Below, one piece after another: positions 1 to 52,018 of a stretch of DNA of 64,000 bases (its first letter is position 1; each line of letters begins with the position of its first letter). Location of the stretch: IMG/VR virus record IMGVR_UViG_3300043429_000511, positions 1-64,000 of that record; one strand, 5' to 3'. A program made the position numbers and the translations under genes. The notes under the pieces were generated by a model. It did no database searches. It was not told where the DNA came from and was given only the letters and a program-made list of their open reading frames with translations. Origin of the DNA: a virus (taxonomy: Duplodnaviria > Heunggongvirae > Uroviricota > Caudoviricetes).

Positions 1-12
1 AAAGAAAAGGTA

Positions 13-282: not shown

Positions 283-283
283 T

Positions 284-4335: not shown

Positions 4336-4340
4336 CTGCT

Positions 4341-5447: not shown

Positions 5448-5509
5448 TTTTGGCGGATTTGACTTTGTCATTTTTTAGGGTTATATTTTATATATAAACA
5501 TTTAAAGAA

Positions 5510-5701: not shown

Positions 5702-6238
5702 TCCCCACAACTCGACGTATGACTAAAATCCTTCGGAATCCCCGAGGGATTTTTTTATGCCCCGAAGGGGATGTGCTACGTCACGACAAAGGAGTGTATG
5801 ACTGAATTAGCCGTATGACATTGTTTAATTCTGTTTAACTAAACCCCCGAAACATTAAACAAAGTATGGGACCTCCCTACGGTCGGTCCCGACAGGAAAC
5901 TGACGTACTACGTCACGACAAAGGAGTGTATGACGACATATATGTGTATATGTATGTGTACAAATTGTGGATATAAATGTATGACCTTTATAAAAAAATA
6001 AAAAACGGGTCGTGATTCGCGGACAGGACAATCCCCCACATATTACCACTTTTCCCCACTTTATCCCCAAAACTGGTTTCTCTGTATTACGAGGGGGAAT
6101 TTTAGGGTGTAATACCTATATATCAATATAAAAATATATTACGATAAAATGTATGACAGAATGTCTGGTATTTTAGGGGTATTTTCTAGTAAAATTCTAG
6201 AACCTGACATAATTGGTCGGTCCCTTTCGGGACCTCCC
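5700..6238. repeat. non-coding iteron region (6x GTATGAC, 27-bp direct repeat at 5776..5802 and 5908..5934)
   Basis: direct reading; convergent end of plus and minus transcription blocks; TGTGTATAT and TGTGGATAT (DnaA-box-like) at 5941-5966; hairpin ggtccc-tttc-gggacc at 6219..6234. Confidence 0.6.
5736..5758 (+). terminator. rho-independent terminator
   Basis: aatcccc-gag-ggatt hairpin + T7 35 nt after stop of 5510..5701. Confidence 0.6.
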
Positions 6239-6685
6239 TTAACGGGGAAAATTTAAATGTATCCTTTGTACACTACCGGGTTTATATAGACAACCTCTTC
6301 TAGTTCTATATCCTTGTTCATTCAGTAAATTACTAATTTTACTATAGTGAACTTTACCATTACTCTTAATAAAGTCATCGATAAATTCCTTACATATCTT
6401 CCAATTCTCATTCTCTAATCTATTCCTCTTTATAGACTCAAGACTTTTTTTCTTAGCTTCTTTTGTGAGATTTTCAGGGGAACCCAATATAACTCCTCTA
6501 TCCTTTGCACGTTTTAATCCTTCCTTAGTAAGTCTCTTATGATTTGTAAAATCCCTTCCGTGAACCTTTCCGTGACAAACCTCACATAATGGAATAGTCT
6601 TAGTTCCCCCTTTTACTTTAGGAACTACGTGGTGATTATGTATATTCTCCACCGAATCACATTCAAAACATTTAATAATATTCAT
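6239..6685 (-). CDS. HNH homing endonuclease
   Basis: N-terminal HNH motif CFEC...HHVVP...PLCEVCHGKVH; C-terminal HTH-like region. Confidence 0.8.
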   Translation of the reverse strand: MNIIKCFECDSVENIHNHHVVPKVKGGTKTIPLCEVCHGKVHGRDFTNHKRLTKEGLKRAKDRGVILGSPENLTKEAKKKSLESIKRNRLENENWKICKEFIDDFIKSNGKVHYSKISNLLNEQGYRTRRGCLYKPGSVQRIHLNFPR

Positions 6686-7977: not shown

Positions 7978-7992
7978 TCTTATTAAATTATA

Positions 7993-8253
7993 CTACCAAT
8001 ACTTCTTATGTACAGGTCTAAAATAACATAAACCCCTTTCATCATATCTAAACCCATTCTTCTTTAGATACTGTTTGATAGTTTGATGTCTAGTGTCAGT
8101 CCCCCCGATTCCCTTCCAAGACGACTTTATATCAATATAAACCCACATATACTCCATTATATTGGGATGAACAACTACCAATGTGTTAAGGTAAACTCCC
8201 TTCATCTCCGTATAGGGTTTCAGATACTCCAATACTTCTTTGTTTGTTTTCAT
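7993..8253 (-). CDS. small GIY-YIG-like protein (tentative)
   Basis: KGVYL...VYID....R..H pattern reminiscent of GIY-YIG; 86 aa. Confidence 0.3.
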   Translation of the reverse strand: MKTNKEVLEYLKPYTEMKGVYLNTLVVVHPNIMEYMWVYIDIKSSWKGIGGTDTRHQTIKQYLKKNGFRYDERGLCYFRPVHKKYW

Positions 8254-8257
8254 ACGG

Positions 8258-8289
8258 TAAAGATATGATATATTCTTGTATATTCCAAA
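8258..8289 (-). promoter_or_regulatory. Bacteroidota-type promoter (TTTG-N20-TAtcTTTA-N4-ATG)
   Basis: read on minus strand upstream of 8253 start; TTTGGAATAT extended -33. Confidence 0.5.
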
Positions 8290-8322
8290 TAATATTCAAT
8301 CCTCCCCCCGCCGGAACCGGGT

Positions 8323-9072
8323 TTAGTCCCAATAACCGTGTGATTTTCTGAAAAATTCTGGATTGTTTCTGTTAAGATAGGACTTAATCATTATATAAAA
8401 CATCCATAAAATACCCTTGTTCTTAAAACGTCTGGGTGATGTGTAGGTTCCCTTTATCTTATGTATCTTAAATTCCTTTGGGTTTACCTTCTGTGATATG
8501 GAATAATCCTCAGCAAAAAGTTCATTGGGGTTATATCCCCCGAGGTTCCAATACGTATGGGTCTTCCATAATTGAAATCCTCCCACCGCGAAAGGTGTCC
8601 CCATATAAGTGGATAGAGATTGGAACGTATCGAATACTCTGAACGTCCATCTATATGGATAGTCCGTATAGAACGGAACGGTAATCAAATCCTTCTTATA
8701 CCCCATACATTCTTCCAATATACTTGGATTGGTTAAGAATACATCTGAGTCCAAGAATAACATATATGGGGTTATTACCAATTTACTACCGTTTAATCTT
8801 CCTGTACTTGGATATCCACCTTCTATTACCGTAATCTTTAATATATGTTTGAAGTCTGATTGCAATCTTTCTATATACTGTAAAGATTCTTCTTCATCTG
8901 ATATATCTGCTATGATTACTCTTACCCCCGAAATGTGGTTTTGTTTGGAAATATTATATATACAGTCATATAAGGTTCTTCCCTCATTCTTGGATGGGAT
9001 TACAATTGTTAGTTTCCTACTTAATGACCGTATATTCATTGTTGTTATATATGATGTAACTATTATTTTCAA
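8323..9072 (-). CDS. glycosyltransferase family 2
   Basis: LTIVIPSKNEG ... FLDSD (DxD) GT-A motifs. Confidence 0.7.
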   Translation of the reverse strand: MKIIVTSYITTMNIRSLSRKLTIVIPSKNEGRTLYDCIYNISKQNHISGVRVIIADISDEEESLQYIERLQSDFKHILKITVIEGGYPSTGRLNGSKLVITPYMLFLDSDVFLTNPSILEECMGYKKDLITVPFYTDYPYRWTFRVFDTFQSLSTYMGTPFAVGGFQLWKTHTYWNLGGYNPNELFAEDYSISQKVNPKEFKIHKIKGTYTSPRRFKNKGILWMFYIMIKSYLNRNNPEFFRKSHGYWD

Positions 9073-9700
9073 TCCAATCCCCGCAGTTCAGATACCTTAT
9101 CCCATCAACCATTCTATCCTCAGGATGATGAATGTGACCCGAGATAACCGTTGAACAGTGATGTTTCTTTGCCTGTCTTGTTAGTTCCACCTCATATTGT
9201 GTGATAAACTTAACCGCCTCCTTTACCTTATTCTTAAGGAATTTGGATAACGAACGCTTAAATCCCATCTTCTTTAATGACCTATCAATCGATATCGCCA
9301 TATCATATCCAACGGAACCAAGAACGCCCAACCACTTTAACTTAACAACACCATCATATAAATCCCCGTGGGTTATAAACGTATTGTTCCATACATATTC
9401 ATTGTGAATCTCCACATTTCCAAAAGAGAATTCCCCGTACTCCCTTAGAAACTGGTCGTGATTCCCCGGTATGTATATAACCTTTGTCCCATTCTTTGAA
9501 TGAGATAATATCTTCCTCAATACATTGGTATGTGATTGGGGCCAACGGAATTTCCTCTTTAATAACCATCCGTCAATTATATCCCCAACAAGAAATAGAT
9601 ACTCAGGTTGGTATTGTTTTAAAATTGTTAGGACTTGTTCCGCATTGGAACCTTTTGAACCCAGATGAACATCTGAGATGAATAATGCTTGTATCTTCAT
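9017..9700 (-). CDS. calcineurin-like metallophosphoesterase (LpxH-like)
   Basis: FISDVHLG, LVGDIIDGW, GNHD, GHIHH motifs; start taken at internal MKIQ. Confidence 0.75.
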   Translation of the reverse strand: MKIQALFISDVHLGSKGSNAEQVLTILKQYQPEYLFLVGDIIDGWLLKRKFRWPQSHTNVLRKILSHSKNGTKVIYIPGNHDQFLREYGEFSFGNVEIHNEYVWNNTFITHGDLYDGVVKLKWLGVLGSVGYDMAISIDRSLKKMGFKRSLSKFLKNKVKEAVKFITQYEVELTRQAKKHHCSTVISGHIHHPEDRMVDGIRYLNCGDWIENNSYIIYNNNEYTVIK

Positions 9701-9799
9701 TCCCAATAAATATCCTGAATGGATACGGGAATCTGTTAACAAAATATTATAACTTCCGAGTTTGGACCATTTTTACTTCCGAGTTTGTCATATAAAAAC

Positions 9800-10231
9800 T
9801 TAAATGTCTTCATCTCTTGTATGTAAGTTAACTTCAACAATCAATTGTCTAATATAGTCTATGGTATCTTCATAACCACTCAATAATATATCCTCAATTC
9901 TATCCGTTGTTATATAATCATCAAAGGTGAGTCCATAACAATCATCAATCCGTGTTATTGCTCTGTATCTTGTGGGAATACCACTAACTCCATTGGTATG
10001 TAGGAAATCTCTATTGGTTACAATAAAAGCGTGACTCCTATCAAACGTTCCATTTCTCCAATAATTGAAATCCTGTATGGATGATGCTATTACCGCACAT
10101 TCCCTTGTTCTCGGTACTGCCGGAACTACATCAAATAATTCATTATAGACAGTTCTACCCGCCATTCTTCTTATTAACGGAAGACTTAGAACATAATGGT
10201 CATTCTTTCTTAAGAACTTAAATTCTTTCAT
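9800..10231 (-). CDS. FKFF-motif family protein
   Basis: N-terminus MKEFKFLRKN; paralogous N-term motif in >=7 ORFs. Confidence 0.5.
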   Translation of the reverse strand: MKEFKFLRKNDHYVLSLPLIRRMAGRTVYNELFDVVPAVPRTRECAVIASSIQDFNYWRNGTFDRSHAFIVTNRDFLHTNGVSGIPTRYRAITRIDDCYGLTFDDYITTDRIEDILLSGYEDTIDYIRQLIVEVNLHTRDEDI

Positions 10232-10461
10232 CTTAATGTATTTGCATAGTTTCCTGTATAATATCCTCTATTCCATATCTCCGACCTTAGTTCATCCGTG
10301 TATGGACAATTCCTATTATTACCAACCCCCGCATCGAATCCTTCCCTATATGTCCCAATTTCCCCACACTCAACAATATCCAATGGAATATTATCCCTCA
10401 TATAATAAAGAGTATATGATTCATTCTTTATCTCCTTTTGAAAGAACTTAAACTGTCTCAT
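10228..10461 (-). CDS. FKFF-motif family protein
   Basis: N-terminus MRQFKFFQKE. Confidence 0.5.
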   Translation of the reverse strand: MRQFKFFQKEIKNESYTLYYMRDNIPLDIVECGEIGTYREGFDAGVGNNRNCPYTDELRSEIWNRGYYTGNYANTLR

Positions 10462-10810
10462 CTGTTAGATTCTTTATTATAATAGGTTCATCACAATGGG
10501 GACAATCCTTAAGAACCAATAGATTATTCATATGGAAACTCCATTTGGATACCATTGGAACTTCCTCGGGTTTTAGTTTCCTGAAACCATCTTGATTATC
10601 CACCTCACCATATATGTCATAGTACTTACCTTTGTATCTGGTGATGATATGATTCCCATTTGTATAAGGAATACACCCTTTATACATCTTGGATAGGAGC
10701 AAATGAAACTTATAACATCCACCCTTGGAATATATGTGGTGAATGTATTCGTCCGTATGGTTTAGTTCCTCAATGAAGTCAGATATTCCCATTGTCTTGT
10801 TGTTTAGCAA
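10448..10810 (-). CDS. hypothetical protein
   Basis: 120-aa ORF, C-terminal CPHC. Confidence 0.45.
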   Translation of the reverse strand: MLNNKTMGISDFIEELNHTDEYIHHIYSKGGCYKFHLLLSKMYKGCIPYTNGNHIITRYKGKYYDIYGEVDNQDGFRKLKPEEVPMVSKWSFHMNNLLVLKDCPHCDEPIIIKNLTDETV

Positions 10811-11111
10811 GTTCTATAAGTTTATCTATACAAGCATTCTCTACTTCTTCGTATGTATCAAATCTTCTTAAATCATTTATAGAATAACCATTTTCATAAT
10901 GAGTTATGCTTATAAACAAATCATACTTCTCCCTAAACCATCTAAATGCTTGTTGGTAGAGTGGTGAAGCACAAGCATAACTAAGTGAATTTAGTTCAGT
11001 TGTATTTGGAAAGTAGCAACCTTCCAATGTATAAAATCCAAAGCATTCTTCATTAAAACCTAATTCTTTAAGTTCTAATGCTTGTTCGTATGGTATAAAT
11101 TCTTTGTTCAT
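10779..11111 (-). CDS. hypothetical protein
   Basis: 110-aa ORF. Confidence 0.45.
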   Translation of the reverse strand: MNKEFIPYEQALELKELGFNEECFGFYTLEGCYFPNTTELNSLSYACASPLYQQAFRWFREKYDLFISITHYENGYSINDLRRFDTYEEVENACIDKLIELAKQQDNGNI

Positions 11112-11117
11112 ATATTA

Positions 11118-11215
11118 TTTGTTTTTGTAGTCAGGACAGGATTCGAACCTGTAGGATAGGGCTTACCAAGAGCGACTCTGCCTAACGTCCATTAACGTAA
11201 TCGTTACCAATTCCG
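11118..11215 (-). tRNA. tRNA-like gene, type II (tRNA-Leu-like D-arm; possible UAA anticodon) with irregular anticodon stem
   Basis: 7-bp acceptor agtcagg/cctgact, T-arm acagg-TTCGAAT-cctgt, D-arm GGTGGCGGAATTGGTAA nearly identical to E. coli tRNA-Leu; anticodon region acgt-taatgg-acgt is non-canonical; 98 nt, no encoded CCA. Confidence 0.5.
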
Positions 11216-11345
11216 CCACCTGACTATATTTTTATTATTGTGTTAACATCGTAATCACAATACCTAATAAGATTGAAAAAATTACAGCGGTTATTGTAAA
11301 TCCTACCATAATGCCATCAAAATATGTTTTTTCTTTTTTCATAAC

Positions 11346-11531
11346 TTATTTATCTTTTGGTTTAATCCCGATAAAAAGAACCAATAAAGAAATTGGCAAC
11401 CCTAATATCATCCATACATAAAAACTTACGAGTAGTGATGGGTCTTGGTCTCTTGAAAATGATGCCGCACCTGTTAATGCTAACACAAGAACAAATCCGG
11501 ACCAATTTAATCTTTTAATATAATTTTTCAT
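11346..11531 (-). CDS. small membrane protein
   Basis: 61 aa, two hydrophobic segments. Confidence 0.4.
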   Translation of the reverse strand: MKNYIKRLNWSGFVLVLALTGAASFSRDQDPSLLVSFYVWMILGLPISLLVLFIGIKPKDK

Positions 11532-11779
11532 ATGTCCATTAAAAATTCAAGTATTGAACTTAAAGTTGTAAATCCAAAAACTAAGTAAAGTAATTTCACA
11601 CCCCAAAACCAACCAAACAAATCCGATTCTCCGGTTAGGAACCAAAAGATTAGGTACCAAAAACCAAATGATATTAATACACTCAATAAGAATATTAATA
11701 TAACTTTTAAAACTTCTAACATAAAATAAATTTTAATTTGCTTCGGCTTCGTAAACAATTTCATCCACGGTCTCTTCAA
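11528..11779 (-). CDS. small membrane protein
   Basis: 83 aa, 2-3 TM segments. Confidence 0.4.
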   Translation of the reverse strand: MKRPWMKLFTKPKQIKIYFMLEVLKVILIFLLSVLISFGFWYLIFWFLTGESDLFGWFWGVKLLYLVFGFTTLSSILEFLMDI

Positions 11780-12044
11780 TCATTGGTTGGTTCTCCAACT
11801 CCTCAATAACAATGTTAATTGCTTCACGATATCGGGTTTCTCCCGGTTGGAAATAGATTCCGGTTAAACCCAACACTTCATTATCTATGTAGTGGCGGTT
11901 TTTACCTTTACCTTTTAATATTTCGTGGTCCATCGACACATCATCCCAATAGTCCAATACAAGTTTATGTCCACCCTTATCTTTGTGTACCAATCTAACA
12001 ATATTGTTATGACTGAAGTTCTTAATAAATTCTCCTAGTTTCAT
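11733..12044 (-). CDS. hypothetical protein
   Basis: 103-aa ORF. Confidence 0.4.
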   Translation of the reverse strand: MKLGEFIKNFSHNNIVRLVHKDKGGHKLVLDYWDDVSMDHEILKGKGKNRHYIDNEVLGLTGIYFQPGETRYREAINIVIEELENQPMIEETVDEIVYEAEAN

Positions 12045-12048
12045 ATTA

Positions 12049-12333
12049 TTATTTTTTAATTAATTCAAATAGATGCCAAACAAAAGGATTATCGATATAT
12101 GTACCAATGTACTCATATTCATCAATATTTCTAATGTTATGACCTGTACCGTGAATTTCAAATACTCTCTCTTCTAACTCAGCATCAACATTAACAATCG
12201 CCCACATATGAGGGATGTCATTTTGCATTTGAACGGTTAATATCTTTGCTCCTTTCGGCATCATTATAGTACCTACATCAACTCTATATTTCCAAATCTG
12301 TGTCATATTATTTAATTTTAAAAAAATTAACAA
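12049..12333 (-). CDS. hypothetical protein
   Basis: 94-aa ORF. Confidence 0.4.
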   Translation of the reverse strand: MLIFLKLNNMTQIWKYRVDVGTIMMPKGAKILTVQMQNDIPHMWAIVNVDAELEERVFEIHGTGHNIRNIDEYEYIGTYIDNPFVWHLFELIKK

Positions 12334-12493
12334 ATCTATCTTTTAAAGTAATTTTGTTTTTCTTTAACATCTCTTGATATTCTACTACTTCAATCGCTTC
12401 ACTCATTGAGATTGGTGTTCCTCTTCTTACCTTATCAGATAATTCTTCAAGACGTTTGTCTATGATTGTTTTTCTAAATGTATTTTGTAACAT
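12308..12493 (-). CDS. hypothetical protein
   Basis: 61-aa ORF. Confidence 0.3.
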   Translation of the reverse strand: MLQNTFRKTIIDKRLEELSDKVRRGTPISMSEAIEVVEYQEMLKKNKITLKDRFVNFFKIK

Positions 12494-12504
12494 ATTGTTA
12501 TGTT

Positions 12505-12852
12505 TTAATCTTCAAATATTATTTTACCACATTCCCAACATTTATAAACACCCTCACGATAACCTTCTCTTCTTCTTAAAGGATGTTCACATTTATTTTT
12601 ATGCGAGCCAGGGATTTCATCATCACCAATCAACTCTTCATTACTCAATCCACCCCAATCGTCATTTTTAACAATTTTGAAGTTGAGTGTTAACCATCCT
12701 AATAGTGCTAAAGAAATACATAACCACCAATACCATTCTTTATCGGGCACAATGGTCCCCATCAACTTGTGTATAATATATGTACACATCGGTATATACC
12801 AAATGGCTATTGTTCTCCACGGATTTAAAAAACCACGTTTTTTAATTTTCAT
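12505..12852 (-). CDS. membrane protein with C-terminal zinc ribbon
   Basis: TM segments then CEH...CWECGK. Confidence 0.4.
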   Translation of the reverse strand: MKIKKRGFLNPWRTIAIWYIPMCTYIIHKLMGTIVPDKEWYWWLCISLALLGWLTLNFKIVKNDDWGGLSNEELIGDDEIPGSHKNKCEHPLRRREGYREGVYKCWECGKIIFED

Positions 12853-12910
12853 AAGTTATTTCTTTTTATATTACAAAAATATACAAAAAAATCAATAAAA
12901 TGCTCAGTAT

Positions 12911-13390
12911 TTATACTGAATTTGGAATAAACCATTCGGGAATCTCACCATTCTTCCACTTTGAAAATGAACTCTTGGTAAAGTTGTAATAGTTTCTGTA
13001 GGATTGGACGTGACACATTTCTTTGTACTCATTAGGCATCGCTAGTGGTGGTTCGATAAACTTACCTTCTGGTATGTTTGGTGGGTTATCACAACACCAT
13101 AGAATAATGTCATATGATTTGTGTGTTTTAAGATATCTACGTTTGTACTCCCAACACAATTGAATACCCAACATACATAACCATCTATAGTTTTCAGTAT
13201 TAGTTCTTGTCCATATAGCACAAGGATGATTCTTATGAGATAGTTTGTATGGTGCTTCAGAACCGGTTACCCAATGTGCACCACACAATAGTTGTGCGGT
13301 TTCAAGTATCATCTTAACAACGTGTTTGTCATTGTGGTATCTTGCACATCTTGTGGGGTTCTTATCCAAGTAAAATATATTCATTACCAA
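12911..13390 (-). CDS. conserved hypothetical Cys/His-rich protein
   Basis: 159 aa, FYLDKNPTRCARYHNDKH... ; no family assigned. Confidence 0.45.
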   Translation of the reverse strand: MVMNIFYLDKNPTRCARYHNDKHVVKMILETAQLLCGAHWVTGSEAPYKLSHKNHPCAIWTRTNTENYRWLCMLGIQLCWEYKRRYLKTHKSYDIILWCCDNPPNIPEGKFIEPPLAMPNEYKEMCHVQSYRNYYNFTKSSFSKWKNGEIPEWFIPNSV

Positions 13391-13815
13391 GCATTTAATA
13401 ATTTTGCAATTCCGATAATTGTAACAATGGTTGTCAATGCACTCACAACAACCACACCAATTGGGTCATATAACCAACTTTCTTGAAGAACAATTTTAAT
13501 CTTCATCCACCATTTTGGATTCACCTTTGTTACCGTTGTTGTTTGGAATAATTTTATTGGGTTATCATTTAAATCTCTTCCTTCATTAATCCGTCTTGTA
13601 ACTTCCGCTCGTCTCTCCTCCGTTAATCTATCGTGACGTAAGTTCCTATCATAAAAGTATCGTTCCATCTCATTATTGGGATGACGAAGTCTATCATATT
13701 GACCACGGTTTGTGTGATATAACATTCTTCTACTCATATGGCCCTCAGGGGTGTCCTGAAAGGTGTACTCATCACTATAAACATAACCCTTAAAAAATTT
13801 GAACGGTTTAATCAT
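13384..13815 (-). CDS. FKFF-motif family protein with C-terminal TM anchor
   Basis: N-terminus MIKPFKFFKG; hydrophobic C-terminus. Confidence 0.5.
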   Translation of the reverse strand: MIKPFKFFKGYVYSDEYTFQDTPEGHMSRRMLYHTNRGQYDRLRHPNNEMERYFYDRNLRHDRLTEERRAEVTRRINEGRDLNDNPIKLFQTTTVTKVNPKWWMKIKIVLQESWLYDPIGVVVVSALTTIVTIIGIAKLLNAW

Positions 13816-13823
13816 AAACTATT

Positions 13824-13985
13824 ATTCTGCGGTAACATTTTTTTGTTCAATAGCCCTACTCACCCTCCTCTCAAGTTCGGCAACTCTTGACCTAGTTGTA
13901 TCATCCCTTAACCTATCCTCCAATTCTCTCAACCTTCTCTCAAGTTTCTCAACCCTCAAAATTAACTCATCTTGTCTATTTCTCA
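13824..13985 (-). CDS. small coiled-coil protein
   Basis: 54-aa Arg/Glu/Leu heptad ORF (below ORF-track cutoff). Confidence 0.3.
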
Positions 13986-14270
13986 TCAATCTACCAAATA
14001 ATATTTTGACTTTCTGTAATCAATTTTTTCTTGATGTGAGTCTTTCCAATTTTGGATAATATCCAATGCTTGTTCTTTGTGTTGGAATGGATATGCTCCT
14101 GACCTCCACACCTTAAATGGTAGGTAGAAGTAGTTTGTTCTATACCATATCCTTTCTTGGGGTAAGTAATATGTCGTTCCATTATATACCCACGTTTCGA
14201 TACGATACTTAGGTTTAGCTTCTGATGTTATCACTCCCAATAACATTAGTAATAAAATAATTTTTTTCAT
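13986..14270 (-). CDS. secreted small protein
   Basis: N-terminal signal peptide MKKIILLLMLLGVITSEA. Confidence 0.45.
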   Translation of the reverse strand: MKKIILLLMLLGVITSEAKPKYRIETWVYNGTTYYLPQERIWYRTNYFYLPFKVWRSGAYPFQHKEQALDIIQNWKDSHQEKIDYRKSKYYLVD

Positions 14271-14311
14271 CGTATATAAAATATACTAAAAAAATATTAT
14301 AATAAAAACTT

Positions 14312-14542
14312 TTAACGATACCTCCTGTTTAATTGTCTACCAGCAGCAGACGGTGTTTGTAAATAATTGTTATAGTACATTACAAATTCTCTACCATCTT
14401 CTTGGATGACACATCTAAAAAAATCGGGTAACATTTGTGTAACCGTACAATAATATCCACGCAAGATAAATGAAGAACCAACTTCCAATCGACACCTATC
14501 TTTATACTTGTTCTTCTGAAAGAATTTAAATTCACTTACCAT
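14312..14542 (-). CDS. FKFF-motif family protein
   Basis: N-terminus MVSEFKFFQKN. Confidence 0.5.
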   Translation of the reverse strand: MVSEFKFFQKNKYKDRCRLEVGSSFILRGYYCTVTQMLPDFFRCVIQEDGREFVMYYNNYLQTPSAAGRQLNRRYR

Positions 14543-14891
14543 AAATTTTTTTAATTTTATAATAGAGTTTGAATAGTAATTTACTCAACCATACCGGTCG
14601 TCTATAATAAAATCGAGCCCATTCTTTTTTCTGTGGATAAGACCAATGATAACCTACCATTTGTTCAAAGAAAAACTTTCTTAATCTCCATTTTATTTCT
14701 TCACTAAACGATAACATATAAACATCACACATTAACTCGGTTTCATCGTAGTAGTATTCATTACTGTTAATTGTTTTAAAATAAAAAATGGTGTCACCTA
14801 TTTTACACAATCCTGAGAGATGAATGTCATAATGACTATTCACCCAAAAAAATTTTAACTCATCATAAGGTAATGTGGCAATTCGATTCAT
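14532..14891 (-). CDS. hypothetical protein
   Basis: 119-aa ORF. Confidence 0.4.
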   Translation of the reverse strand: MNRIATLPYDELKFFWVNSHYDIHLSGLCKIGDTIFYFKTINSNEYYYDETELMCDVYMLSFSEEIKWRLRKFFFEQMVGYHWSYPQKKEWARFYYRRPVWLSKLLFKLYYKIKKIYGK

Positions 14892-14904
14892 AAAAAAAAT
14901 TTAA

Positions 14905-15087
14905 TTATTTATCCTCAACCCAAATTTCTATCGGTTCGTCAAATGGTGATGTCTTGTTTGGTATATAATTTGGATTCTTTACACTTTTCCAACTCATACC
15001 ACATCTATTACACTTACAACGATTAGGTGCCCACCCAAAATTGTATGTGTACTTGTGTCCGAATATTTTACAAATTAATTTCTTCAT
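14905..15087 (-). CDS. small zinc-ribbon protein
   Basis: CKIFGH...CKCNRCG. Confidence 0.4.
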   Translation of the reverse strand: MKKLICKIFGHKYTYNFGWAPNRCKCNRCGMSWKSVKNPNYIPNKTSPFDEPIEIWVEDK

Positions 15088-15107
15088 CTTAGTAATTTTT
15101 AATTAAT

Positions 15108-15396
15108 CCAAATAAAAAACTAATTTGTAATTTTCCAGTTCTACCCCATTCTATATAGAGTAGTGATTCGTTGTGGTTGATTTCTAATAACGAAAACCAA
15201 CTTCTTCCTCTACCTTCGATTTCAATATCGAATAGTTCTATGTTTAATCTCATAATGGTATGTAAAAAAATAATGAATCAAATTTTGAATGTGCGAGAAA
15301 ATAACTACCGTCTTTACATCGATATAAATTAACTCGTCTACCATTCACTACGTCAGTGAAACGATATTCAATAAAGGTTGCAAATAATCTTTTCAT
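15108..15396 (-). CDS. two translationally coupled micro-ORFs (~48 aa each, ATGA overlap at 15250-15253)
   Basis: direct translation of minus strand; below ORF-track cutoff. Confidence 0.25.
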
Positions 15397-15486
15397 ATTT
15401 CTTACCATTTACCCCATTGGGATTTGTGTCTATTCTCTTCGGCAATCTTAAAACCCAACCATATTTCTTGAAGGGTTTTTTTAAAT

Positions 15487-15855
15487 TTAATTATTAATTT
15501 GTTCATATGCTTTTGGTGATGGTAAACCACTATATTCACAATGAAAATCTTCTCGGTACTCTCTTAGTTTTTCTTTAATCTCCTCGGGAAAGTACATACC
15601 ATTAGATTCCATATCAGCAATAGTTCTGTTAACCGATTTATAAATTATTTTCTTTTCTCTTTTAGGAATAGATTGTTCATCAAACAATCTTTGCATCATA
15701 ACAAACAATGCGTCTCTTCCATATTTTTTTGCGTTCGGGTCATATTGATACCCGTTCTTTTCCATACTCATAAATTCCTTATACACAAGAATACCGAATA
15801 CTAAAAATAAGGTAGACACAATAGTTGTAAGAATTATAATATCTAAATTCTCCAT
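15487..15855 (-). CDS. membrane-anchored hypothetical protein
   Basis: N-terminal TM segment. Confidence 0.45.
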   Translation of the reverse strand: MENLDIIILTTIVSTLFLVFGILVYKEFMSMEKNGYQYDPNAKKYGRDALFVMMQRLFDEQSIPKREKKIIYKSVNRTIADMESNGMYFPEEIKEKLREYREDFHCEYSGLPSPKAYEQINN

Positions 15856-16038
15856 TTTTTATTTTCTTTTAATGTTTACAAAATTCAACAACCCTAAAAT
15901 TGTTGGTGGCCATAACCCAATAAAAATTGCTTTCAAAGGATTGTTTTGTACTAAGTAAATGTATTCACTCACAAAAATACAAATTACACACACCATTAAA
16001 ATAAGCATTTCACTTATACTGAACTTCTTCATAATTTT

Positions 16039-16713
16039 TTAATTTAAACTGTTTGGATAATATAATAAAGTTGGATTCTTTTTTTGAATGTCAACATCGG
16101 GATACTCTTGTTTGAATTTCATAACATCAAATTTTTTGGTAATTAAATGATGTCCGTTTTTTGTTGGGATAATCGATTCAACTTTCGGTCCAACCTTATA
16201 CCCAATCGGTATTCCTACCTCGTCATATTCAACAACAGTAATTGGTTCACAACCATATTCAATATGGGCAACCATTAGTGGTGAGACTTGTGGATTATCA
16301 ATGTCAACAATCCATCTCTTCTCCTGTGTTTTTAATTGACCAACAACGGAATCAAATAATCCTTTTTGATTTTGTACTCCGTTCTTAATTCTTTCCGCCA
16401 AGGTTGCCAACATATCCAATGAAACATCTTTGTGATTTTGTTTTTGAATATGGATGTATGCTCTCGCCTTAAACACCTCACATAATTGTTTTATCTCGTC
16501 ATATCTCATATCGAGATATGAAATACTATCAACACAATATGTCTTTATTGTCCTGACTGACTGATGATTATCTTTCTCACCTTCGGGTTGGTCCTTCTTG
16601 CGTTTGAAAACATAAAGCATATAAAAATCTCCGACTTCGGAGAAATTTAACAACTGCTTAATTTTTTCGATATTATCTATCACTTTTGTCAGTTGATGTG
16701 AAATATTTTTCAA
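16039..16713 (-). CDS. hypothetical protein
   Basis: 224-aa ORF. Confidence 0.45.
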   Translation of the reverse strand: MKNISHQLTKVIDNIEKIKQLLNFSEVGDFYMLYVFKRKKDQPEGEKDNHQSVRTIKTYCVDSISYLDMRYDEIKQLCEVFKARAYIHIQKQNHKDVSLDMLATLAERIKNGVQNQKGLFDSVVGQLKTQEKRWIVDIDNPQVSPLMVAHIEYGCEPITVVEYDEVGIPIGYKVGPKVESIIPTKNGHHLITKKFDVMKFKQEYPDVDIQKKNPTLLYYPNSLN

Positions 16714-16900
16714 TTGCCTCTAACCTATCATCAGCATCAATTAACATCTTAAGAGCATCTTCCGCATTGTTGTAGAAGTCTTTCGTTGAATGGTCACCAA
16801 TACCTACACCTTTATTACCTAAAAGGTCTAATGATAGTAATGCTTTCGCTTTATCAGCTTCCGCCGATGTTTGTAACATTTTAATTAAATTCTGATTCAT
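16673..16900 (-). CDS. hypothetical protein
   Basis: 75-aa ORF. Confidence 0.35.
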   Translation of the reverse strand: MNQNLIKMLQTSAEADKAKALLSLDLLGNKGVGIGDHSTKDFYNNAEDALKMLIDADDRLEAIEKYFTSTDKSDR

Positions 16901-16912
16901 ATTTTTGTTTGT

Positions 16913-17287
16913 TTAAAATAATGATTCAATTAAGTATGAAAGTTTATATCCTGTAAATGCACCAAGTGCTGATGGGATTGGGAATACGATTAACTTACCT
17001 AAACTTGTTACATATCTCGGTCTGTTTTGTATCCTACCCAACATATAATAATAACTCAAGTAACCAACCATAACCATCAAATCAGTTCTTGTGGATATAA
17101 ACACTACGATTGTTGCACCAAGAAATCCAAAGAAAAAATTATCCCTAACTCCTTCCCATACCTCTAGTGAAGTGGCTTCATTCCACTCTTTTATTATTCT
17201 TTGTAATTTTTTTCTTGACATTATTTTCTTGTATCGAATTTTTGAACTATCGACATTATATCTGTGACGTCTGTTGGTCTTAACCAA
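16913..17287 (-). CDS. membrane protein
   Basis: multiple hydrophobic segments. Confidence 0.4.
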   Translation of the reverse strand: MVKTNRRHRYNVDSSKIRYKKIMSRKKLQRIIKEWNEATSLEVWEGVRDNFFFGFLGATIVVFISTRTDLMVMVGYLSYYYMLGRIQNRPRYVTSLGKLIVFPIPSALGAFTGYKLSYLIESLF

Positions 17288-17496
17288 CCCACAACATCTT
17301 CGGTTATTGGTGTGTCATATAGAATTTCTCCGGTTTCCTCACTAACAACCGCCAACTCATACAAATCTTTTTCATTTCCATATGAGTAGTCGTGTTTAAC
17401 TACTGATACACCGTATCCATTCCCAAAATAAAGACGACTAACTACACCATTATTTATTGGGTGAGGATTAAAAACCAAATCATTAAATGTTTTCAT
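17221..17496 (-). CDS. hypothetical protein (paralog of 22128..22406)
   Basis: GYGVSVVKH..LYELAVVSEETGEILYDTPITEDVVGWL vs EWGVSVTRS..LFELVTLDENANVVYNTPLVGPIGFL. Confidence 0.5.
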   Translation of the reverse strand: MKTFNDLVFNPHPINNGVVSRLYFGNGYGVSVVKHDYSYGNEKDLYELAVVSEETGEILYDTPITEDVVGWLRPTDVTDIMSIVQKFDTRK

Positions 17497-18065
17497 ACTA
17501 TTATTTTTTGGTACTTAATTACTTTGAAATGTTCTCTATATTTTTCTCTCGGTATCAGATACCCCATCGTGTGACTGTTTATATCACCCGATTCTTCTGA
17601 TACAGGAAACTCATTGTTTGATATAATCTCTCTAAGTTTTGTTACAGGTATTGACCACAATTCGTCCAAGTGAAAAAAGAAATTCATCCACACATCTGCG
17701 GTCGTTGTTGTTATTCCTGAATCAACTCCTCTACTATGAAACTCTATGAATATATTTCCAGTATCCTTTCCTTCAATCCATATCTCTCTTTCCCATCCTT
17801 GTGGTTTAAACCACTTACCTGGTATAATATAAACATCGGTTTTGATTTCGTACTTAAATGGTTTTGATTTATGTTTTAATTCTAAATCCCATTTTTTTAA
17901 ATCACCTCTCTCTTCCGATTCTCTTACAAATTCTAAACCTTTATAGTCCATCAAATATTGTGCAGCCATCTTCTCACCAATCTTACCAATACGATTATCC
18001 TTTGTGAAATTCTTTTGACTCACAATGTTATCAATATCAGATTTGGTGACGTATAGTTTTACCAT
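17493..18065 (-). CDS. hypothetical protein (weak PD-(D/E)xK-like D-x-E-x-K)
   Basis: 190 aa; WDLELKH motif only. Confidence 0.4.
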   Translation of the reverse strand: MVKLYVTKSDIDNIVSQKNFTKDNRIGKIGEKMAAQYLMDYKGLEFVRESEERGDLKKWDLELKHKSKPFKYEIKTDVYIIPGKWFKPQGWEREIWIEGKDTGNIFIEFHSRGVDSGITTTTADVWMNFFFHLDELWSIPVTKLREIISNNEFPVSEESGDINSHTMGYLIPREKYREHFKVIKYQKIIV

Positions 18066-18307
18066 TAATATTTGTTCTTTTCTGATTTACTTAACTCTTT
18101 TAAAACCTCAACACTTCCTTTCAAATTTTCAAAATCAATATCTCTTTCTAAATGTTGAACGTTTATCTTTGTTGCAAGTACTTCTTGTAATGTTTTTTTA
18201 GCTATTGAATCTGCCAATTTTCTTTTTTGTTTGGTGGTATCAACACCTAACAAAGGTGCTTCAAACTCAACTTCTAATTCTAATTTAATTCTGTATTTGA
18301 ATAACAT
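18065..18307 (-). CDS. hypothetical protein
   Basis: 80-aa ORF with canonical promoter upstream. Confidence 0.45.
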   Translation of the reverse strand: MLFKYRIKLELEVEFEAPLLGVDTTKQKRKLADSIAKKTLQEVLATKINVQHLERDIDFENLKGSVEVLKELSKSEKNKY

Positions 18308-18311
18308 AGTG

Positions 18312-18342
18312 TAAAGTTATTATATTTTTGGAATATTCCAAA
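18312..18342 (-). promoter_or_regulatory. Bacteroidota-type promoter with perfect palindrome TTTGGAATATTCCAAA
   Basis: minus-strand reading TTTG-N19-TAacTTTA-N4-ATG upstream of 18307. Confidence 0.55.
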
Positions 18343-18618
18343 TTATTTTCGAACAATATTAATCATAATTCCTGCTAACCCTGAAGAAACGGTATAGGAA
18401 TTAAATCGGTTATCGTTTATCCAACCGAAGTCCTTGAATCTGAATATGATATGCTGTTTCCCTTCAAAATTGGCGTAGATTGCGTTATCCGCATAATCGA
18501 TAGAAGGTTGCAGTATAAACCCCATTTTCCAACTCTCTCTAAACTCTTCTTCTAATTCGTCAGGAGTGATTAGTATCGTCATAAGTGTCGTCGTTTTCCG
18601 TGAATCTATAATGTTCAA
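18343..18618 (-). CDS. hypothetical protein
   Basis: 91-aa ORF. Confidence 0.4.
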   Translation of the reverse strand: MNIIDSRKTTTLMTILITPDELEEEFRESWKMGFILQPSIDYADNAIYANFEGKQHIIFRFKDFGWINDNRFNSYTVSSGLAGIMINIVRK

Positions 18619-18889
18619 TGGTCAATAAATCTGAAGTAATATCAAAACCCCAACCATCAGGATATTCACTAGTACCTGTATGTGTTCTACCATTACAGGT
18701 TATTGATTTCACAACGACAACAAAGTTATCGGGAAAATGATTTAGGAAGTCATAGATACCTCTGTATTGTTCGGTAACTATGAAATGGTCTAACCCATCT
18801 AAATTTACATTAGTGTCATATATCCAACTTGGAGAAGAGTCTAAATCTAATCCGGTACTTCTCCCTGAAAAAAATTTAAAACTTCTCAT
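18560..18889 (-). CDS. FKFF-motif family protein (start placed at internal MRSFKFFSGR)
   Basis: family motif lies at residue 33 of the longer ORF 18560..18985. Confidence 0.4.
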   Translation of the reverse strand: MRSFKFFSGRSTGLDLDSSPSWIYDTNVNLDGLDHFIVTEQYRGIYDFLNHFPDNFVVVVKSITCNGRTHTGTSEYPDGWGFDITSDLLTIEHYRFTENDDTYDDTNHS

Positions 18890-19034
18890 AGAAAAAATAT
18901 AAGAAATAAAATTTAAAATTCCAAAAGATACTATGAAAAGAATGAATATTTTATAATGTAGTAAAGTATAGTACCACCGGTCCAAAATACTAAACCACCG
19001 ATACCTACTGCGATAATAAGTGCAATGATTCTTG

Positions 19035-19730
19035 CTACTTTATCTGTTTTGCTTGAGTCCATATTTCTATAATTTTATATAAGTCGTTAGCCAAATCCTT
19101 ATGTCCGTCCTCTGAATAGTGACCATCCTCCATCACACCCAATGTCTCAATTGTGAGTGTTTCATATTCGTGTAATGGAATCACATTTTCAAAAAAACTA
19201 ATGATATTTTCGTCATATTTTCTTTGAATATTCATATTCGAAAAATACCAAAATATTGAGAAGATATCTTCACCACAAACCTTTTTTATTATTTTGGTGT
19301 AGTTAGAAACCTCCTTATAATATATACTTGAGGAATTACGATTTACACCAATCTCCTCCAAACTTTTTTCGGACACGAACCTGTTGGGTGATTTACAACC
19401 CGCCTGAATCATAACCTTTTCAAACTTGTTATTATCATCCGCAATTCTAAACCTATTAGGATATGTCCAATTGACTATCACAATGTCACCAGGTCGGATT
19501 TGGTCCATCACCTCAATAAAACTATGAAATATTTCATCATTCGAGTTTCCTGCCGATGCCAATATCTCTAAATCACATTCCAATTTATCCGATATAATCT
19601 CACCATAACACTTCGGTGAATAACCTTTCCAAATGTGGTATCGAACCCTATAATCAATAGGGTCGTAAAGTTTTTGGTCAAAGTCACTGAACTTCTGACT
19701 AAAGGAATCTCCGAATATCCACAGTTTCAT
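19035..19730 (-). CDS. SGNH/GDSL hydrolase
   Basis: LWIFGDSFS (block I), AGNSND (block III), DGHYSEDGH (block V). Confidence 0.7.
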   Translation of the reverse strand: MKLWIFGDSFSQKFSDFDQKLYDPIDYRVRYHIWKGYSPKCYGEIISDKLECDLEILASAGNSNDEIFHSFIEVMDQIRPGDIVIVNWTYPNRFRIADDNNKFEKVMIQAGCKSPNRFVSEKSLEEIGVNRNSSSIYYKEVSNYTKIIKKVCGEDIFSIFWYFSNMNIQRKYDENIISFFENVIPLHEYETLTIETLGVMEDGHYSEDGHKDLANDLYKIIEIWTQAKQIK

Positions 19731-20335
19731 TATAAAGAATGTATTCTCGTTTTTATTTCATTATAAAATTTATCTGCAACTATTTCATTTCCAACCTCAT
19801 CGAACTTATTATCAATTACAGTTGCACCTTTCTCTTCAAAATACTTAACCAAACAAGTTGTTGATTCATTACATAAGTAACTTCTTTTTGCTTTAAATGA
19901 TGGTCTTGCGGGATATATCAACCTATCCTCATCACTTGACCAAAAAAACAAATTATATCTCTTCGATTTCGCAAGTTCATCTAAAATATTTTCATAGTAA
20001 TAAATCTGTTCACACCATTTTTCAGATAACCTATCTCTAACCACATTCTCAATATATGTTGAGTCAATGTGTTCGTCACCTAAATCATTTGGGCTGTAAC
20101 AAATAAACTCATCATTGATTGGTGTTCTAAAATTACAAACATTACCCCAACCAATAATAACAATATCATCACTATGAATCAAATCACATACACCACAGAA
20201 ATCATCAAAGATTTGATAGTTGCAAGTTTTATCTTTTGATAAGTTTTTAACTTGGTATCCTAATTTCTCACCTAATAAAGTTGTCCAACTACTATTACTG
20301 AAACCATCACCAAATACCCACATTACTCTAATCAT
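19730..20335 (-). CDS. SGNH/GDSL hydrolase paralog (possibly lacking block V His)
   Basis: WVFGDGFS; IVIIGW; FFWSSD; C-terminal DEVGNE instead of D..H. Confidence 0.6.
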   Translation of the reverse strand: MIRVMWVFGDGFSNSSWTTLLGEKLGYQVKNLSKDKTCNYQIFDDFCGVCDLIHSDDIVIIGWGNVCNFRTPINDEFICYSPNDLGDEHIDSTYIENVVRDRLSEKWCEQIYYYENILDELAKSKRYNLFFWSSDEDRLIYPARPSFKAKRSYLCNESTTCLVKYFEEKGATVIDNKFDEVGNEIVADKFYNEIKTRIHSL

Positions 20336-21078
20336 AATAAACTCTTTTTTATTTTGGTGGAGATTTCTTTGTAAAAAACTTCCGCCTGAACCCGATGTCC
20401 AATTTCACCAAAATGTAAATCGGGTATTTTACCCTTTGTTTCCATTTCAACGGTTTTTGCACCCTTTTTTCTAATTAGGTGTGCTAATACACCATCAACA
20501 GAATCTGAACAAAGGTACTTTTTTTTATTTTTAAATTCTTTTGGTTCATCGTAGATAATTTTACTATCACTTGACCAAAAAAATATCTCAAAACCTTTGT
20601 GTTTTGAGAGTTCTTCTATTAAATTTTGTCTATCGTAAATTTCTCTTGTATATATTGGATTAGTTCTCTCAACTAAAAGGAAATCTAACGTCTCCGTTGA
20701 CATATGGGTTGAGTTGACGTCACTATTTTTTGTGTGGTTTGGGAGTACTGAGATTAATTTTGGTAGTTGTTTTTCATCATAACTGCTAATCCAAAATCTT
20801 GCGAGTTGCGTCCAACCAATTACCACAATGTCACCCTCATTAATCATTTCACAATTGTCACAGAACGCACCGAAAATATGGTCATTAGAACTACCTCCCA
20901 CTCCTTTATTTTCAACCTCCATACCCAACATCTTACCCAATCTATGTGGCCAAGTTTCAGGTAACGTTCCACCTAACCAATCTCGATATAACATATAGTT
21001 GTTTTTCTCACCATTCATAGAACTCAGTGGATGATATTCTGCGGTGTAACTACAACCAAATGTCCATAACTTATTCAT
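20332..21078 (-). CDS. SGNH/GDSL hydrolase paralog
   Basis: LWTFGCSYT; GGSSND; IFFWSSD; HFGEIGH. Confidence 0.7.
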   Translation of the reverse strand: MNKLWTFGCSYTAEYHPLSSMNGEKNNYMLYRDWLGGTLPETWPHRLGKMLGMEVENKGVGGSSNDHIFGAFCDNCEMINEGDIVVIGWTQLARFWISSYDEKQLPKLISVLPNHTKNSDVNSTHMSTETLDFLLVERTNPIYTREIYDRQNLIEELSKHKGFEIFFWSSDSKIIYDEPKEFKNKKKYLCSDSVDGVLAHLIRKKGAKTVEMETKGKIPDLHFGEIGHRVQAEVFYKEISTKIKKSLL

Positions 21079-21823
21079 TGTAATATCCGTTTCTATATCT
21101 GTTTATGTCTCTTAGAAACATTTCTGACATTACTCTATGACCAACTTCACCATAATGTTCATCATCCGGTAGAATTCTATTAGTCTCTTCGTGAAAACTT
21201 TGTGCACCATATTCACGGAGAAACTTAGTCATATCCGTATTTGCTTCAGGCACTAAACAATTGTATTTGTACTTAAATGAGTTATCTTCTTTGTTGATTA
21301 TTTGTTTATCTGCCGACCAAAAATATAATTCGAATTGCTTAGCAAGACTTAATTCCTTCATTAACTTCATAAAGGAATATATCTCATCACACCAAACAGG
21401 GTTAATTCTGTTAACCAATATTTGTTGCATCACTTTTAAATCATATTGTACGTGGCTATGTGCTTCTGATGGAATAACAGAAACCATTTGATGGTGTCTA
21501 CCCATATTTTTATTGACAATATCGAATCGTTCTTTTCTCGACCATTCGACAATTACCACATCACCTTTTTGAATTCTTTGACAGTTTGCGGAAAATCTGT
21601 TGAATATTCTGTAGTTAGAAAAACCAGGGTACCCCATATTTTCTTTTTCTAACCCTAATTCTCTTGCAACAATTGTGGGCCACACATCATTTATATCACC
21701 ACCTCGGTAATTTCTATATCTGATGTTATTATTTTCAGATTCATCACTTTGACCGGGTTTCAAATATGATGTAAAATCATATTCTGCGGTGAAACTACAT
21801 CCAAATGTCCACAATTTACTCAT
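21071..21823 (-). CDS. SGNH/GDSL hydrolase paralog
   Basis: LWTFGCSFT; YFWSAD; EHYGEVGH. Confidence 0.7.
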   Translation of the reverse strand: MSKLWTFGCSFTAEYDFTSYLKPGQSDESENNNIRYRNYRGGDINDVWPTIVARELGLEKENMGYPGFSNYRIFNRFSANCQRIQKGDVVIVEWSRKERFDIVNKNMGRHHQMVSVIPSEAHSHVQYDLKVMQQILVNRINPVWCDEIYSFMKLMKELSLAKQFELYFWSADKQIINKEDNSFKYKYNCLVPEANTDMTKFLREYGAQSFHEETNRILPDDEHYGEVGHRVMSEMFLRDINRYRNGYYNE

Positions 21824-21837: not shown

Positions 21838-22131
21838 TTAATCTACTTTATGGAATGTCATCTCCTCAACAGGGTAACAATTGCGTAAAGCTAAAACAAA
21901 TGTTTTCAAATGTTTAACACAATCGTTATCAGCTCTCAGTGCTGCATTTGTTAGGTCGTTATTTACTACTGATTGTACAAAGTCACCTCCTTGAAATCCT
22001 ACCTTATCTCTTGTTCTCATCACAGAAACTATGATATCAACGATGTGGTCACTAGCATCAATTGCATATCTCTTTAAAAAGTTTTGTGCTGCTGGATAAT
22101 ACAAATCCTCAGTTGTTTCTACGTTTGTCAT
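21838..22131 (-). CDS. hypothetical protein
   Basis: 97-aa ORF. Confidence 0.4.
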   Translation of the reverse strand: MTNVETTEDLYYPAAQNFLKRYAIDASDHIVDIIVSVMRTRDKVGFQGGDFVQSVVNNDLTNAALRADNDCVKHLKTFVLALRNCYPVEEMTFHKVD

Positions 22132-22406
22132 ATTATTTGTTTTTTTGGAAAATTTTGAACTTCAATCATTAATTCAGTTACCTCATCTTCAGTTAAAAAA
22201 CCAATAGGTCCTACTAATGGTGTGTTATAAACCACATTAGCGTTTTCATCTAATGTAACCAATTCAAATAAACCTTGTTCGGCACCTAAAGAACAAGCGA
22301 AAGACCTTGTTACACTAACTCCCCATTCATTTTCGAACATCAACATTGAATACTGTCCATCTCTATCGTGAGTAAATTCAATGTCTTTAAAAGTTTTATA
22401 ACTCAT
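22128..22406 (-). CDS. hypothetical protein (paralog of 17221..17496)
   Basis: see 17221..17496. Confidence 0.5.
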   Translation of the reverse strand: MSYKTFKDIEFTHDRDGQYSMLMFENEWGVSVTRSFACSLGAEQGLFELVTLDENANVVYNTPLVGPIGFLTEDEVTELMIEVQNFPKKQII

Positions 22407-51921: not shown

Positions 51922-52018
51922 TATTCACTTGATTTTTAAATAAATCTTTGTTAGATTTTATTAAAATATAGTGAATAAAAAACAATAAACCAAAATATTT
52001 ATATAAAAAGAAAACAAT

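Follow-up and report, generated by a model that had tools for sequence, protein, structure and literature searches.

Six genes in the 64,000-nt stretch of DNA analysed here (positions 1 to 64,000 of the Caudoviricetes record IMGVR_UViG_3300043429_000511 in IMG/VR; hereafter the window) are ancient paralogs within a large, uncharacterised branch of the SGNH/GDSL hydrolase fold that is essentially confined to viruses, with four of the genes lying consecutively in an array (c1 to c4) and two dispersed (c5 and c6). This SGNH-like branch had previously gone unnamed and is apparently restricted to phages. The explanation we favour, which may equally well prove right or wrong, is that five intact copies are leaderless cytoplasmic enzymes that tailor acyl esters on sugar substrates made by the phage, while c2, a catalytically dead copy by its motifs, serves as their partner subunit. 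No concept is overturned by these findings, as both the fold and the chemistry are familiar; what is new is a virus-specific, amplified family with a modified active site. The six genes and their motifs in order, with residues numbered here and throughout as in c1, are as follows.

21071-21823, minus strand: c4, 250 aa, first gene of the array; GCS / YPGFSN / R / DEH / E.GH
20332-21078, minus strand: c3, 248 aa, SGNH-like; GCS / VGGSSN / R / DLH / E.GH
19730-20335, minus strand: c2, 201 aa, catalytically dead paralog by motifs; GDG / KDKTCN / Asn / DNK
19035-19730, minus strand: c1, 231 aa, last gene of the array; GDS / SAGNSN / R93 / E140 / D202-G-H204 / E207..H210
48040-48684, minus strand: c5, 214 aa, dispersed copy; GDS / VGGYDN / R / DNH / E.AH
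51230-51922, minus strand: c6, 230 aa, dispersed and very distant copy; GCS / RGGSNE / R / DSH, with Gln in place of the second His

The four consecutive open reading frames (ORFs) of the array lie exactly where an earlier, sequence-only reading of the window had placed them, all on the minus strand and inside a long block of genes of the same orientation. Starts and stops of successive genes in the order c4-c3-c2-c1 overlap by 8, 4 and 1 nt (the start of c3 over the stop of c4 accounting for the 8 nt), and c4 to c1 thus look like one translationally coupled operon. A scan for promoters and terminators around the array gave no enrichment over shuffled sequences. A palindrome with a 9-bp stem was seen at 20586-20609, within the c3 coding sequence, and has a terminator-like score on both strands. 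Both of the dispersed copies that had been proposed exist as well, although the end then given for c6 (51921) falls one base short of 51922, the position of the ATG at which public gene calls begin this gene. Translation of 51230-51921 runs into stop codons. A longer c6 beginning at a TTG at 52057, which would add a hydrophobic N-terminus, was rejected, as the extension is not conserved in orthologs.

Hidden Markov models (HMMs) of the family, run with filters off and E<=10, recovered all six ORFs and no other in the window; the A4 HMM scored c3 at 281.7 bits, c4 at 254.8 bits and c5 at 229.7 bits, and found c6 at E 2.9e-4. Identity to c1 is 19-32% in a MAFFT alignment and ranges from 25 to 37% among c1-c5 by BLAST, with c3 and c4 being 37% identical, and BLAST detected no similarity between c6 and the other five copies. 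Nonetheless, c6 is a true if very distant member of the family, because its ortholog group aligns to the main family over ~180 columns (hhalign, 90% probability, E 1.5e-6), because a main-family HMM built without any c6-type sequence still picks it up at E 2.9e-4, and because c6-type genes occur within main-family tandem arrays in L060, L063, L066, L070 and L072 (L-numbers denote related loci, mostly IMG/VR contigs, with L082 and L083 being contigs of metagenome-assembled genomes, or MAGs).

The SGNH identity is supported by structure and by sub-threshold profile matches, but not by any HMM match above threshold. An AlphaFold model of c1 built from a 71-sequence alignment (predicted local distance difference test, pLDDT, 94.9; predicted template modelling score, pTM, 0.92) matches SGNH hydrolases only in structure searches, and it displays the three-layer alpha/beta/alpha architecture of the superfamily, including the central parallel sheet, with the catalytic residues on loops. 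This similarity is distant (TM-score about 0.45-0.5, 9-20% identity), and no single subfamily stands out. The model of c6 is weak (pLDDT 66.8) and has its strands and helices in the same order as c1. Among profile matches in the window the best to the Pfam clan SGNH_hydrolase (which includes PF00657 and PF13472) is that of c5 to Lipase_GDSL_2 (E 0.0097; 16.9 bits against a cut-off of 32.9), and c4 matches DUF6071 (PF19547; E 6.7e-4; 19.8 bits against a cut-off of 27), both below threshold. Across the family, weak Lipase_GDSL matches were found in 12 of 71 members (best E 5e-6, all sub-threshold) and weak DUF6071 matches in four of the 71. When compared with PDB sequences, the family profile gave a marginal match to rhamnogalacturonan acetylesterase (RGAE) alone (E 0.12), and P0090 as query gave none. 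The sequence-only reading was to be abandoned if HMM searches returned no SGNH hit, which is formally what happened with the six proteins of the window; we have kept the assignment because the evidence from the fold outweighs this outcome.

Conservation was computed over 71 and over 192 family sequences, and in both sets S9, G61, N64, D82, R93, E140, D202 and H204 are either invariant or conserved to at least 90%. Of these N64 and D202 are invariant; G7 is also conserved, as are E207 and H210 in the main family. When placed on the secondary structure of the c1 model, S9 lies behind strand 1 at the block I position, G61 and N64 behind strand 2 at the block II position, R93 in the loop behind strand 3 at the block III position, and D202-x-H204 ahead of the C-terminal helix at the block V position. 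The motifs as read earlier were approximate and need revision in three respects. Block I, given as GDS(F/Y), is indeed GDS in c1 and c5, but it is GCS in c3, c4 and c6 and GDG, without the nucleophile Ser, in c2; this Ser is at least 90% conserved family-wide. The presumed block III (G.ND) is really GGx[SD]N and corresponds to block II, in the loop after strand 2, where the expected Gly is found in all copies other than c2 (KDKTCN), and where an extra invariant Asn follows three residues past the Gly. In the family profile GGssN aligns to the block II Gly42 of RGAE, and the segment GDivivgWtsl aligns to RGAE GDYVIVEFGHN, from which it follows that the canonical block III Asn has no counterpart. 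In place of G-x-N-D this loop reads GWTxxxRF, and the residue opposite RGAE Asn74 in the alignment varies. The invariant Arg of the loop and the block II Asn may replace the missing block III Asn. Finally, block V had been given as D..H but is D-x-H in all intact copies, with the Asp two residues before the His and not three; five of the six copies keep the His, as does at least 90% of the family, and the Asp is invariant.

The loss of the block V His in c2 had been noticed correctly (DNK), and it is one of several. This copy also lacks the Ser (GDG), the block II Gly (KDKTCN), the family-invariant R93 (Asn) and E140 (Gln), and the second His (Asn), and ~30 residues after block I are deleted. 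Its orthologs on L074 and L076 carry the same dead motifs at 94-95% identity, whereas Ser and His are both retained in c2-like genes that are further removed (L078 and L075/L077/L081), so that the inactivation is specific to the lineage of the window. The ratio of nonsynonymous to synonymous substitution rates (dN/dS) of c2 against its L074 and L076 orthologs is 0.18-0.23, which indicates that the dead copy is maintained by purifying selection. The role we consider most likely for c2 is that of a binding or partner subunit without catalytic activity. Other dead array members, which read GDN...DxN/Q, were found in L022 (8772-9455), L026 (1358-2041), L029 (12009-12695) and L028 (10669-11375); inactivation within the arrays is therefore independent and recurring.

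Pairwise alignment showed the paralogs to be strongly diverged. At 19-37% identity they are not the near-identical recent duplicates without catalytic residues that would have undone the sequence-only reading, and recent duplication is further excluded by the orthology of subtypes across lineages. In particular, array members of other phages often resemble one copy of the window more than they do the genes beside them (L075 9291, for instance, shares 46% identity with c4 versus 32% with its own paralog), and because such matches across phages exceed those within arrays, the subtypes predate the split of the phage lineages. Local duplication was nevertheless seen for c5-type genes in L022, L026 and L029, the copies being 41-47% identical to one another. 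The copies c1-c5 have diverged mainly in three loops rich in insertions and deletions, of which one follows block I, one follows strand 3 and one precedes block V; these are only 17-23% identical with many gaps, compared with 59% for the block I segment and 36% for the surroundings of block II. Diversifying selection, which had been raised as a possibility, was not detected at the whole-gene level. By the Nei-Gojobori method against orthologs on related contigs (L074, L076 and L002-L008), dN/dS is 0.07-0.08 for c1, 0.10 for c3, 0.02-0.04 for c4, 0.06-0.10 for c5 and 0.03-0.20 for c6, and the overall range of 0.02-0.23 in all six genes shows that every copy is maintained.

A separate observation concerns synonymous divergence (dS) between the window and L074 and L076, which is 0.11-0.16 for c2 versus 0.36-0.81 for c1, c3 and c4. 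Such unequal values between adjoining genes suggest mosaic recombination within the array.

Homologs of these proteins are numerous and have so far escaped annotation. A word-indexed search returned 145, every one labelled 'hypothetical protein', and an exhaustive HMM search of 1.84 billion cluster representatives (50%-identity clusters) matched 355 clusters at E<=1e-30, 1113 at E<=1e-10 and 4911 at E<=1e-3, the representatives being nearly all single domains of 205-270 aa. The long or fused members P0177, P0222, P0244, P0242, P0171 and P0252 look like tandem fusions and showed no informative partner domain. IMG/VR contributed 168 relatives, and the 80 loci of these that we examined, on contigs of up to 333 kb, fall into 48 lineage groups at 90% identity. 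Tandem arrays of at least two copies were present in 17 of the 48 groups and arrays of 3-5 copies in 12, with c5 being the most widespread subtype. Among 50,697 deposited phage genomes, there was no tblastn match to c3 or c5 and no megablast match to the array region. The multi-copy set had been called unusual for a phage, which is true of deposited genomes but not of uncultured viral contigs, where the family is common and repeatedly multi-copy. In prokaryotes, a pattern scan of one genome per species (185,579 species) matched two MAG contigs alone, L082 (Lishizhenia, GC 0.33) and L083 (Aquirufa). L082 has several other ORFs in common with the viral loci and is for this reason probably a binned phage fragment; as a weak hint, freshwater Bacteroidota could be the hosts. 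In the literature, we found GDSL domains fused to tail fibres only, and no stand-alone arrays.

Comparison with known systems places the phage proteins at some distance from all of them. The carbohydrate esterase families of CAZy, namely CE2 (Est2A 3U37, CtCE2 2WAO, CjCE2 2WAA), CE3 (2VPT) and CE12 (RGAE, 1DEO), share the N-terminal G-x-S Ser, the block II Gly (RGAE Gly42) and the His before the last helix, but the similarity is at the level of the fold alone (12-20% identity, TM-score about 0.45-0.5). In contrast to these enzymes the phage proteins lack a signal peptide and any carbohydrate-binding or jelly-roll domain, carry GWTxxxRF with its invariant Arg instead of the block III GxND and D-x-H instead of DxxH, and possess the extra invariant Asn. 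Escherichia coli TesA/TAP (thioesterase I, protease I, lysophospholipase L1; 1IVN, 1J00) is among the best Foldseek matches, with a target-normalised TM-score of up to 0.62, and is alike in size and in its compact single SGNH domain. However, TesA is a periplasmic protein with a signal peptide and the canonical four blocks, its identity to the phage protein is 11-12%, and it lacks the extra loops and the hairpin after strand 3 of the phage proteins. The catalytic subunits of platelet-activating factor (PAF) acetylhydrolase Ib (1BWP/1BWQ) are eukaryotic and have canonical motifs, unlike the phage copies. Tail fibres of cryoconite phages carry GDSL lipase domains (PMC7468147), and such fibre and tailspike SGNH domains (also BFVD Q8LTH0 and A0A8S5VVD8) are likewise encoded by phages and variable between related phages; they are, however, parts of large structural proteins with an extracellular action, within which they lie internally or at the C-terminus, whereas the window copies occur as several separate proteins without a leader, encoded in non-structural regions. 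The best structural neighbours were BFVD proteins from 'uncultured Caudovirales phage' (A0A6J5LTY2, A0A6J5L3U7, A0A6J5LXE1 and others; Foldseek E 2e-10 to 1e-8, TM-score 0.59-0.64), which are stand-alone and 205-270 aa long but only 14-18% identical and themselves uncharacterised.

Each of the six window proteins is a bare domain of 201-250 aa whose first element is strand 1, and in the intact copies the Ser is near residue 9. No signal peptide, membrane segment or fibre/tailspike attachment domain was found in any of the six. Since leader, membrane segment and virion-attachment domain are all lacking, we propose that they act in the cytoplasm. Based on their motifs, c1, c3, c4, c5 and c6 would keep a serine-nucleophile active site in an altered layout and would form an acyl-enzyme, so as to cleave or transfer O-acyl (most simply acetyl) esters, with an oxyanion hole possibly rebuilt from Arg93 and/or Asn64. 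Each paralog probably takes a different substrate, because the three indel-rich pocket loops differ between copies. Inside the infected cell, the intact copies would most likely act as esterases or acyltransferases on sugar-containing products of co-located phage enzymes. The features of the window that bear on this proposal and on its alternatives are listed below.

6682-7977, minus strand: 431-aa protein with Lar-like restriction-alleviation, endonuclease VII and HNH regions (PHROG)
17221-17496 and 22128-22406, minus strand: small paralog pair of 91 and 92 aa flanking the array (36% identity, E 3e-13)
35552-37147: M23 peptidase with peptidoglycan-binding domain (Pfam)
41100-42053, minus strand: DNA-methyltransferase-like gene (strong match to phrog_116, DNA methyltransferase)
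46552-47688, minus strand: 378-aa protein resembling thymidylate synthase but exceeding typical ThyA in length, two genes away from c5
48868-49356, minus strand: P-loop-like protein of 162 aa that begins MKILIFGIPNSGTSS and adjoins c5
50527-51228, minus strand: N6/N4-methylase-like protein abutting c6 (sub-threshold N6_N4_Mtase match, DPPF motif)
52477-58915, plus strand: sugar island of GT4, GT4, GT2, NAD-dependent epimerase/dehydratase, GT2 and GT2 genes (Pfam)
61144-63960: tail fibre gene with S74 chaperone domain, far from the array

The carbohydrate-rich context that had been pointed out earlier is borne out by the two family 4 and three family 2 glycosyltransferases (GT4, GT2) and the epimerase/dehydratase at 52477-58915, an island from which c6 is divergently transcribed. 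The c5 gene sits between the ThyA-like gene and the small P-loop-like protein, and the array itself lies among small non-structural genes with no assigned function. In other phages the surroundings of the family, counted over the examined loci at distances of up to 5 kb from a family member, recurrently include 2-oxoglutarate-Fe(II) (2OG-Fe(II)) oxygenases (25 loci, multi-copy), epimerase/dehydratases (25), a 220-aa 'GRSGSTS' P-loop-like protein (21), GT4 (19), DUF5672 (13), radical S-adenosylmethionine (SAM) enzymes (12), APS kinase (11) and carbamoyltransferases (10). The protein at 48868-49356 is weakly collinear (E 0.002) with these 220-aa proteins (e.g. L033 9336-9995, plus strand), whose 'GRSGSTS' motif we take to resemble the 3'-phosphoadenosine-5'-phosphosulfate (PAPS)-binding loop of sulfotransferases; searches of Pfam, NCBIfam and PDB sequences did not confirm a sulfotransferase identity for these 'SG(S/T)S' P-loop-like neighbours. 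One example is found on L077, a 316-kb IMG/VR contig, where an island at 5110-20063 consists, in sequence, of an epimerase, two ~430-aa proteins without assignment and a five-gene SGNH-like array, with DUF5672, carbamoyltransferase and APS kinase genes immediately after the array and those for a Trp-halogenase-like flavoenzyme and then a 2OG-Fe(II) oxygenase farther along. From this company we infer a functional link between the SGNH-like genes and the sugar island, that is, a role in glycan tailoring.

Several observations weigh against such a role. Scans of the six proteins with Pfam, NCBIfam and PHROG models gave nothing above threshold, and the fold is no closer to carbohydrate esterases than to thioesterase and lipase members of the superfamily. 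With the block III Asn absent and the Asp-His spacing non-canonical, catalytic competence is something that we infer from residue conservation. The c1-c4 array is ~27 kb from the glycosyltransferase island of the window, homologs of the window's neighbouring genes recur in only 5-11 of the 48 lineage groups, which means that part of the neighbourhood signal is shared synteny of related phages, and the genes found alongside are the usual content of hypervariable islands in phages at large. The link between these genes may consequently be positional rather than functional.

The sequence-only reading had proposed a role on the outside of the host, in which virion-associated or released O-acetyl esterases would deacetylate capsule, O-antigen or teichoic acid and thereby unmask receptors or assist a depolymerase. 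The fold likeness to CE2, CE3 and CE12 acetyl-esterases, the S74-chaperone tail fibre encoded at 61144-63960 and the SGNH/GDSL domains known in phage tail fibres and tailspikes (cryoconite phages, PMC7468147; BFVD proteins of 580-760 aa) all agree with this idea. We nevertheless regard it as unlikely and find it unsupported in this window, since the six domains come without signal peptide, anchor, N-terminal adaptor or beta-helix, none of them adjoins the fibre gene, the array occupies a block of small non-structural genes distant from it, and the neighbours in other phages are cytoplasmic biosynthetic enzymes. Moreover, tailspike-fused SGNH proteins are among the weaker BFVD matches (E of at least 6e-5, versus 2e-10 for stand-alone phage proteins). 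Another alternative is that the proteins are hydrolases of the envelope or its lipids that would act in takeover or lysis, such as TesA-like thioesterases, lysophospholipases or Ape-like peptidoglycan O-acetyl esterases gaining access to their target after holin action. As canonical endolysins show, enzymes without a leader can pass to the wall through holin lesions, and the window does encode an M23 peptidase with a peptidoglycan-binding domain. What makes this improbable in our view is that four to six diverged copies together with a conserved dead one are hard to fit to a single lysis function, that no copy adjoins the M23 gene or a recognisable holin or endolysin, and that the recurrent neighbours are sugar-nucleotide and tailoring enzymes rather than lysis genes.

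The genes next to the dispersed copies raise the further prospect that the family tailors modified phage DNA or its nucleotide precursors, by removing or transferring acyl groups on a hypermodified base or a DNA-attached sugar. A ThyA-like gene stands beside c5, with a ThyA homolog lying within 500 bp of a family gene in five lineage groups; an N6/N4-methylase-like gene abuts c6; glycosyltransferases, a carbamoyltransferase and radical SAM enzymes are nearby in relatives; and the invariant Arg of the active-site loop could conceivably bind phosphate. However, we know of no SGNH enzyme in any DNA-hypermodification pathway, the ThyA-like protein retains the dUMP-type Asn motif and could simply be a normal thymidylate synthase, and its adjacency may be mere synteny among related phages, so that we hold this prospect to be very remote. 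Slighter still is the likelihood that the whole family is non-enzymatic, a structural or binding scaffold on an SGNH-like fold, as might be argued from the missing block III Asn, the non-canonical Asp-His spacing, the lack of any curated HMM match above threshold and the recurrence of dead copies (c2, and GDN...DxN in L022, L026, L028 and L029). Against it, hundreds of sequences that otherwise share 20-40% identity have Ser, Gly, Asn, Asp and His invariant or conserved to at least 90%, as is characteristic of a functional active site, and dead copies are a minority always found alongside intact ones.

Cytoplasmic acyl-ester tailoring by the five intact copies, with c2 as partner, remains the explanation that we favour, and if it holds a large phage-only enzyme family (hundreds of 50%-identity clusters) is at present annotated as 'hypothetical', one with a modified SGNH active site, repeated expansion into arrays and conserved pseudo-enzymes. 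Expansions of enzyme gene families are uncommon in phages, and this one would point to a demanding task involving several acyl-ester substrates, probably on glycans made by the phage. Although speculative, and in our opinion rather doubtful, a bolder extension is that the arrays form a phage glycan-tailoring toolkit, in which cytoplasmic O-acyl esterases or transferases of different specificity, some with a dead regulatory or substrate-binding paralog, would work together with glycosyltransferases, epimerases, carbamoyltransferase and PAPS-dependent sulfation. During infection such a toolkit would produce or modify a glycan bearing acyl, carbamoyl or sulfate groups, carried by the virion, the phage DNA or the host surface, and the altered active site of its enzymes, with an Arg where the block III Asn should be and with D-x-H, would make them a new mechanistic subclass within the SGNH enzymes. 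If the favoured explanation holds, the six small and presumably soluble proteins offer a cloneable entry point into the function of those hypervariable islands of large aquatic phages that carry glycosyltransferase, carbamoyltransferase and APS-kinase genes.

With regard to the phage itself, the window is AT-rich (31-37% GC) and has no close cultured relative. Its RNA ligase is 35% identical to the nearest cultured relatives, in Arthrobacter and Streptomyces phages, and is uninformative about the host; a tRNA that could serve as a host hint was not found. One short contig deserves a final remark: L009, an IMG/VR contig of 4.3 kb, carries the same truncated c5-like gene at both of its ends (3-557, minus strand, and 3798-4352, plus strand), likely reflecting either an assembly artefact or an inverted terminal duplication.

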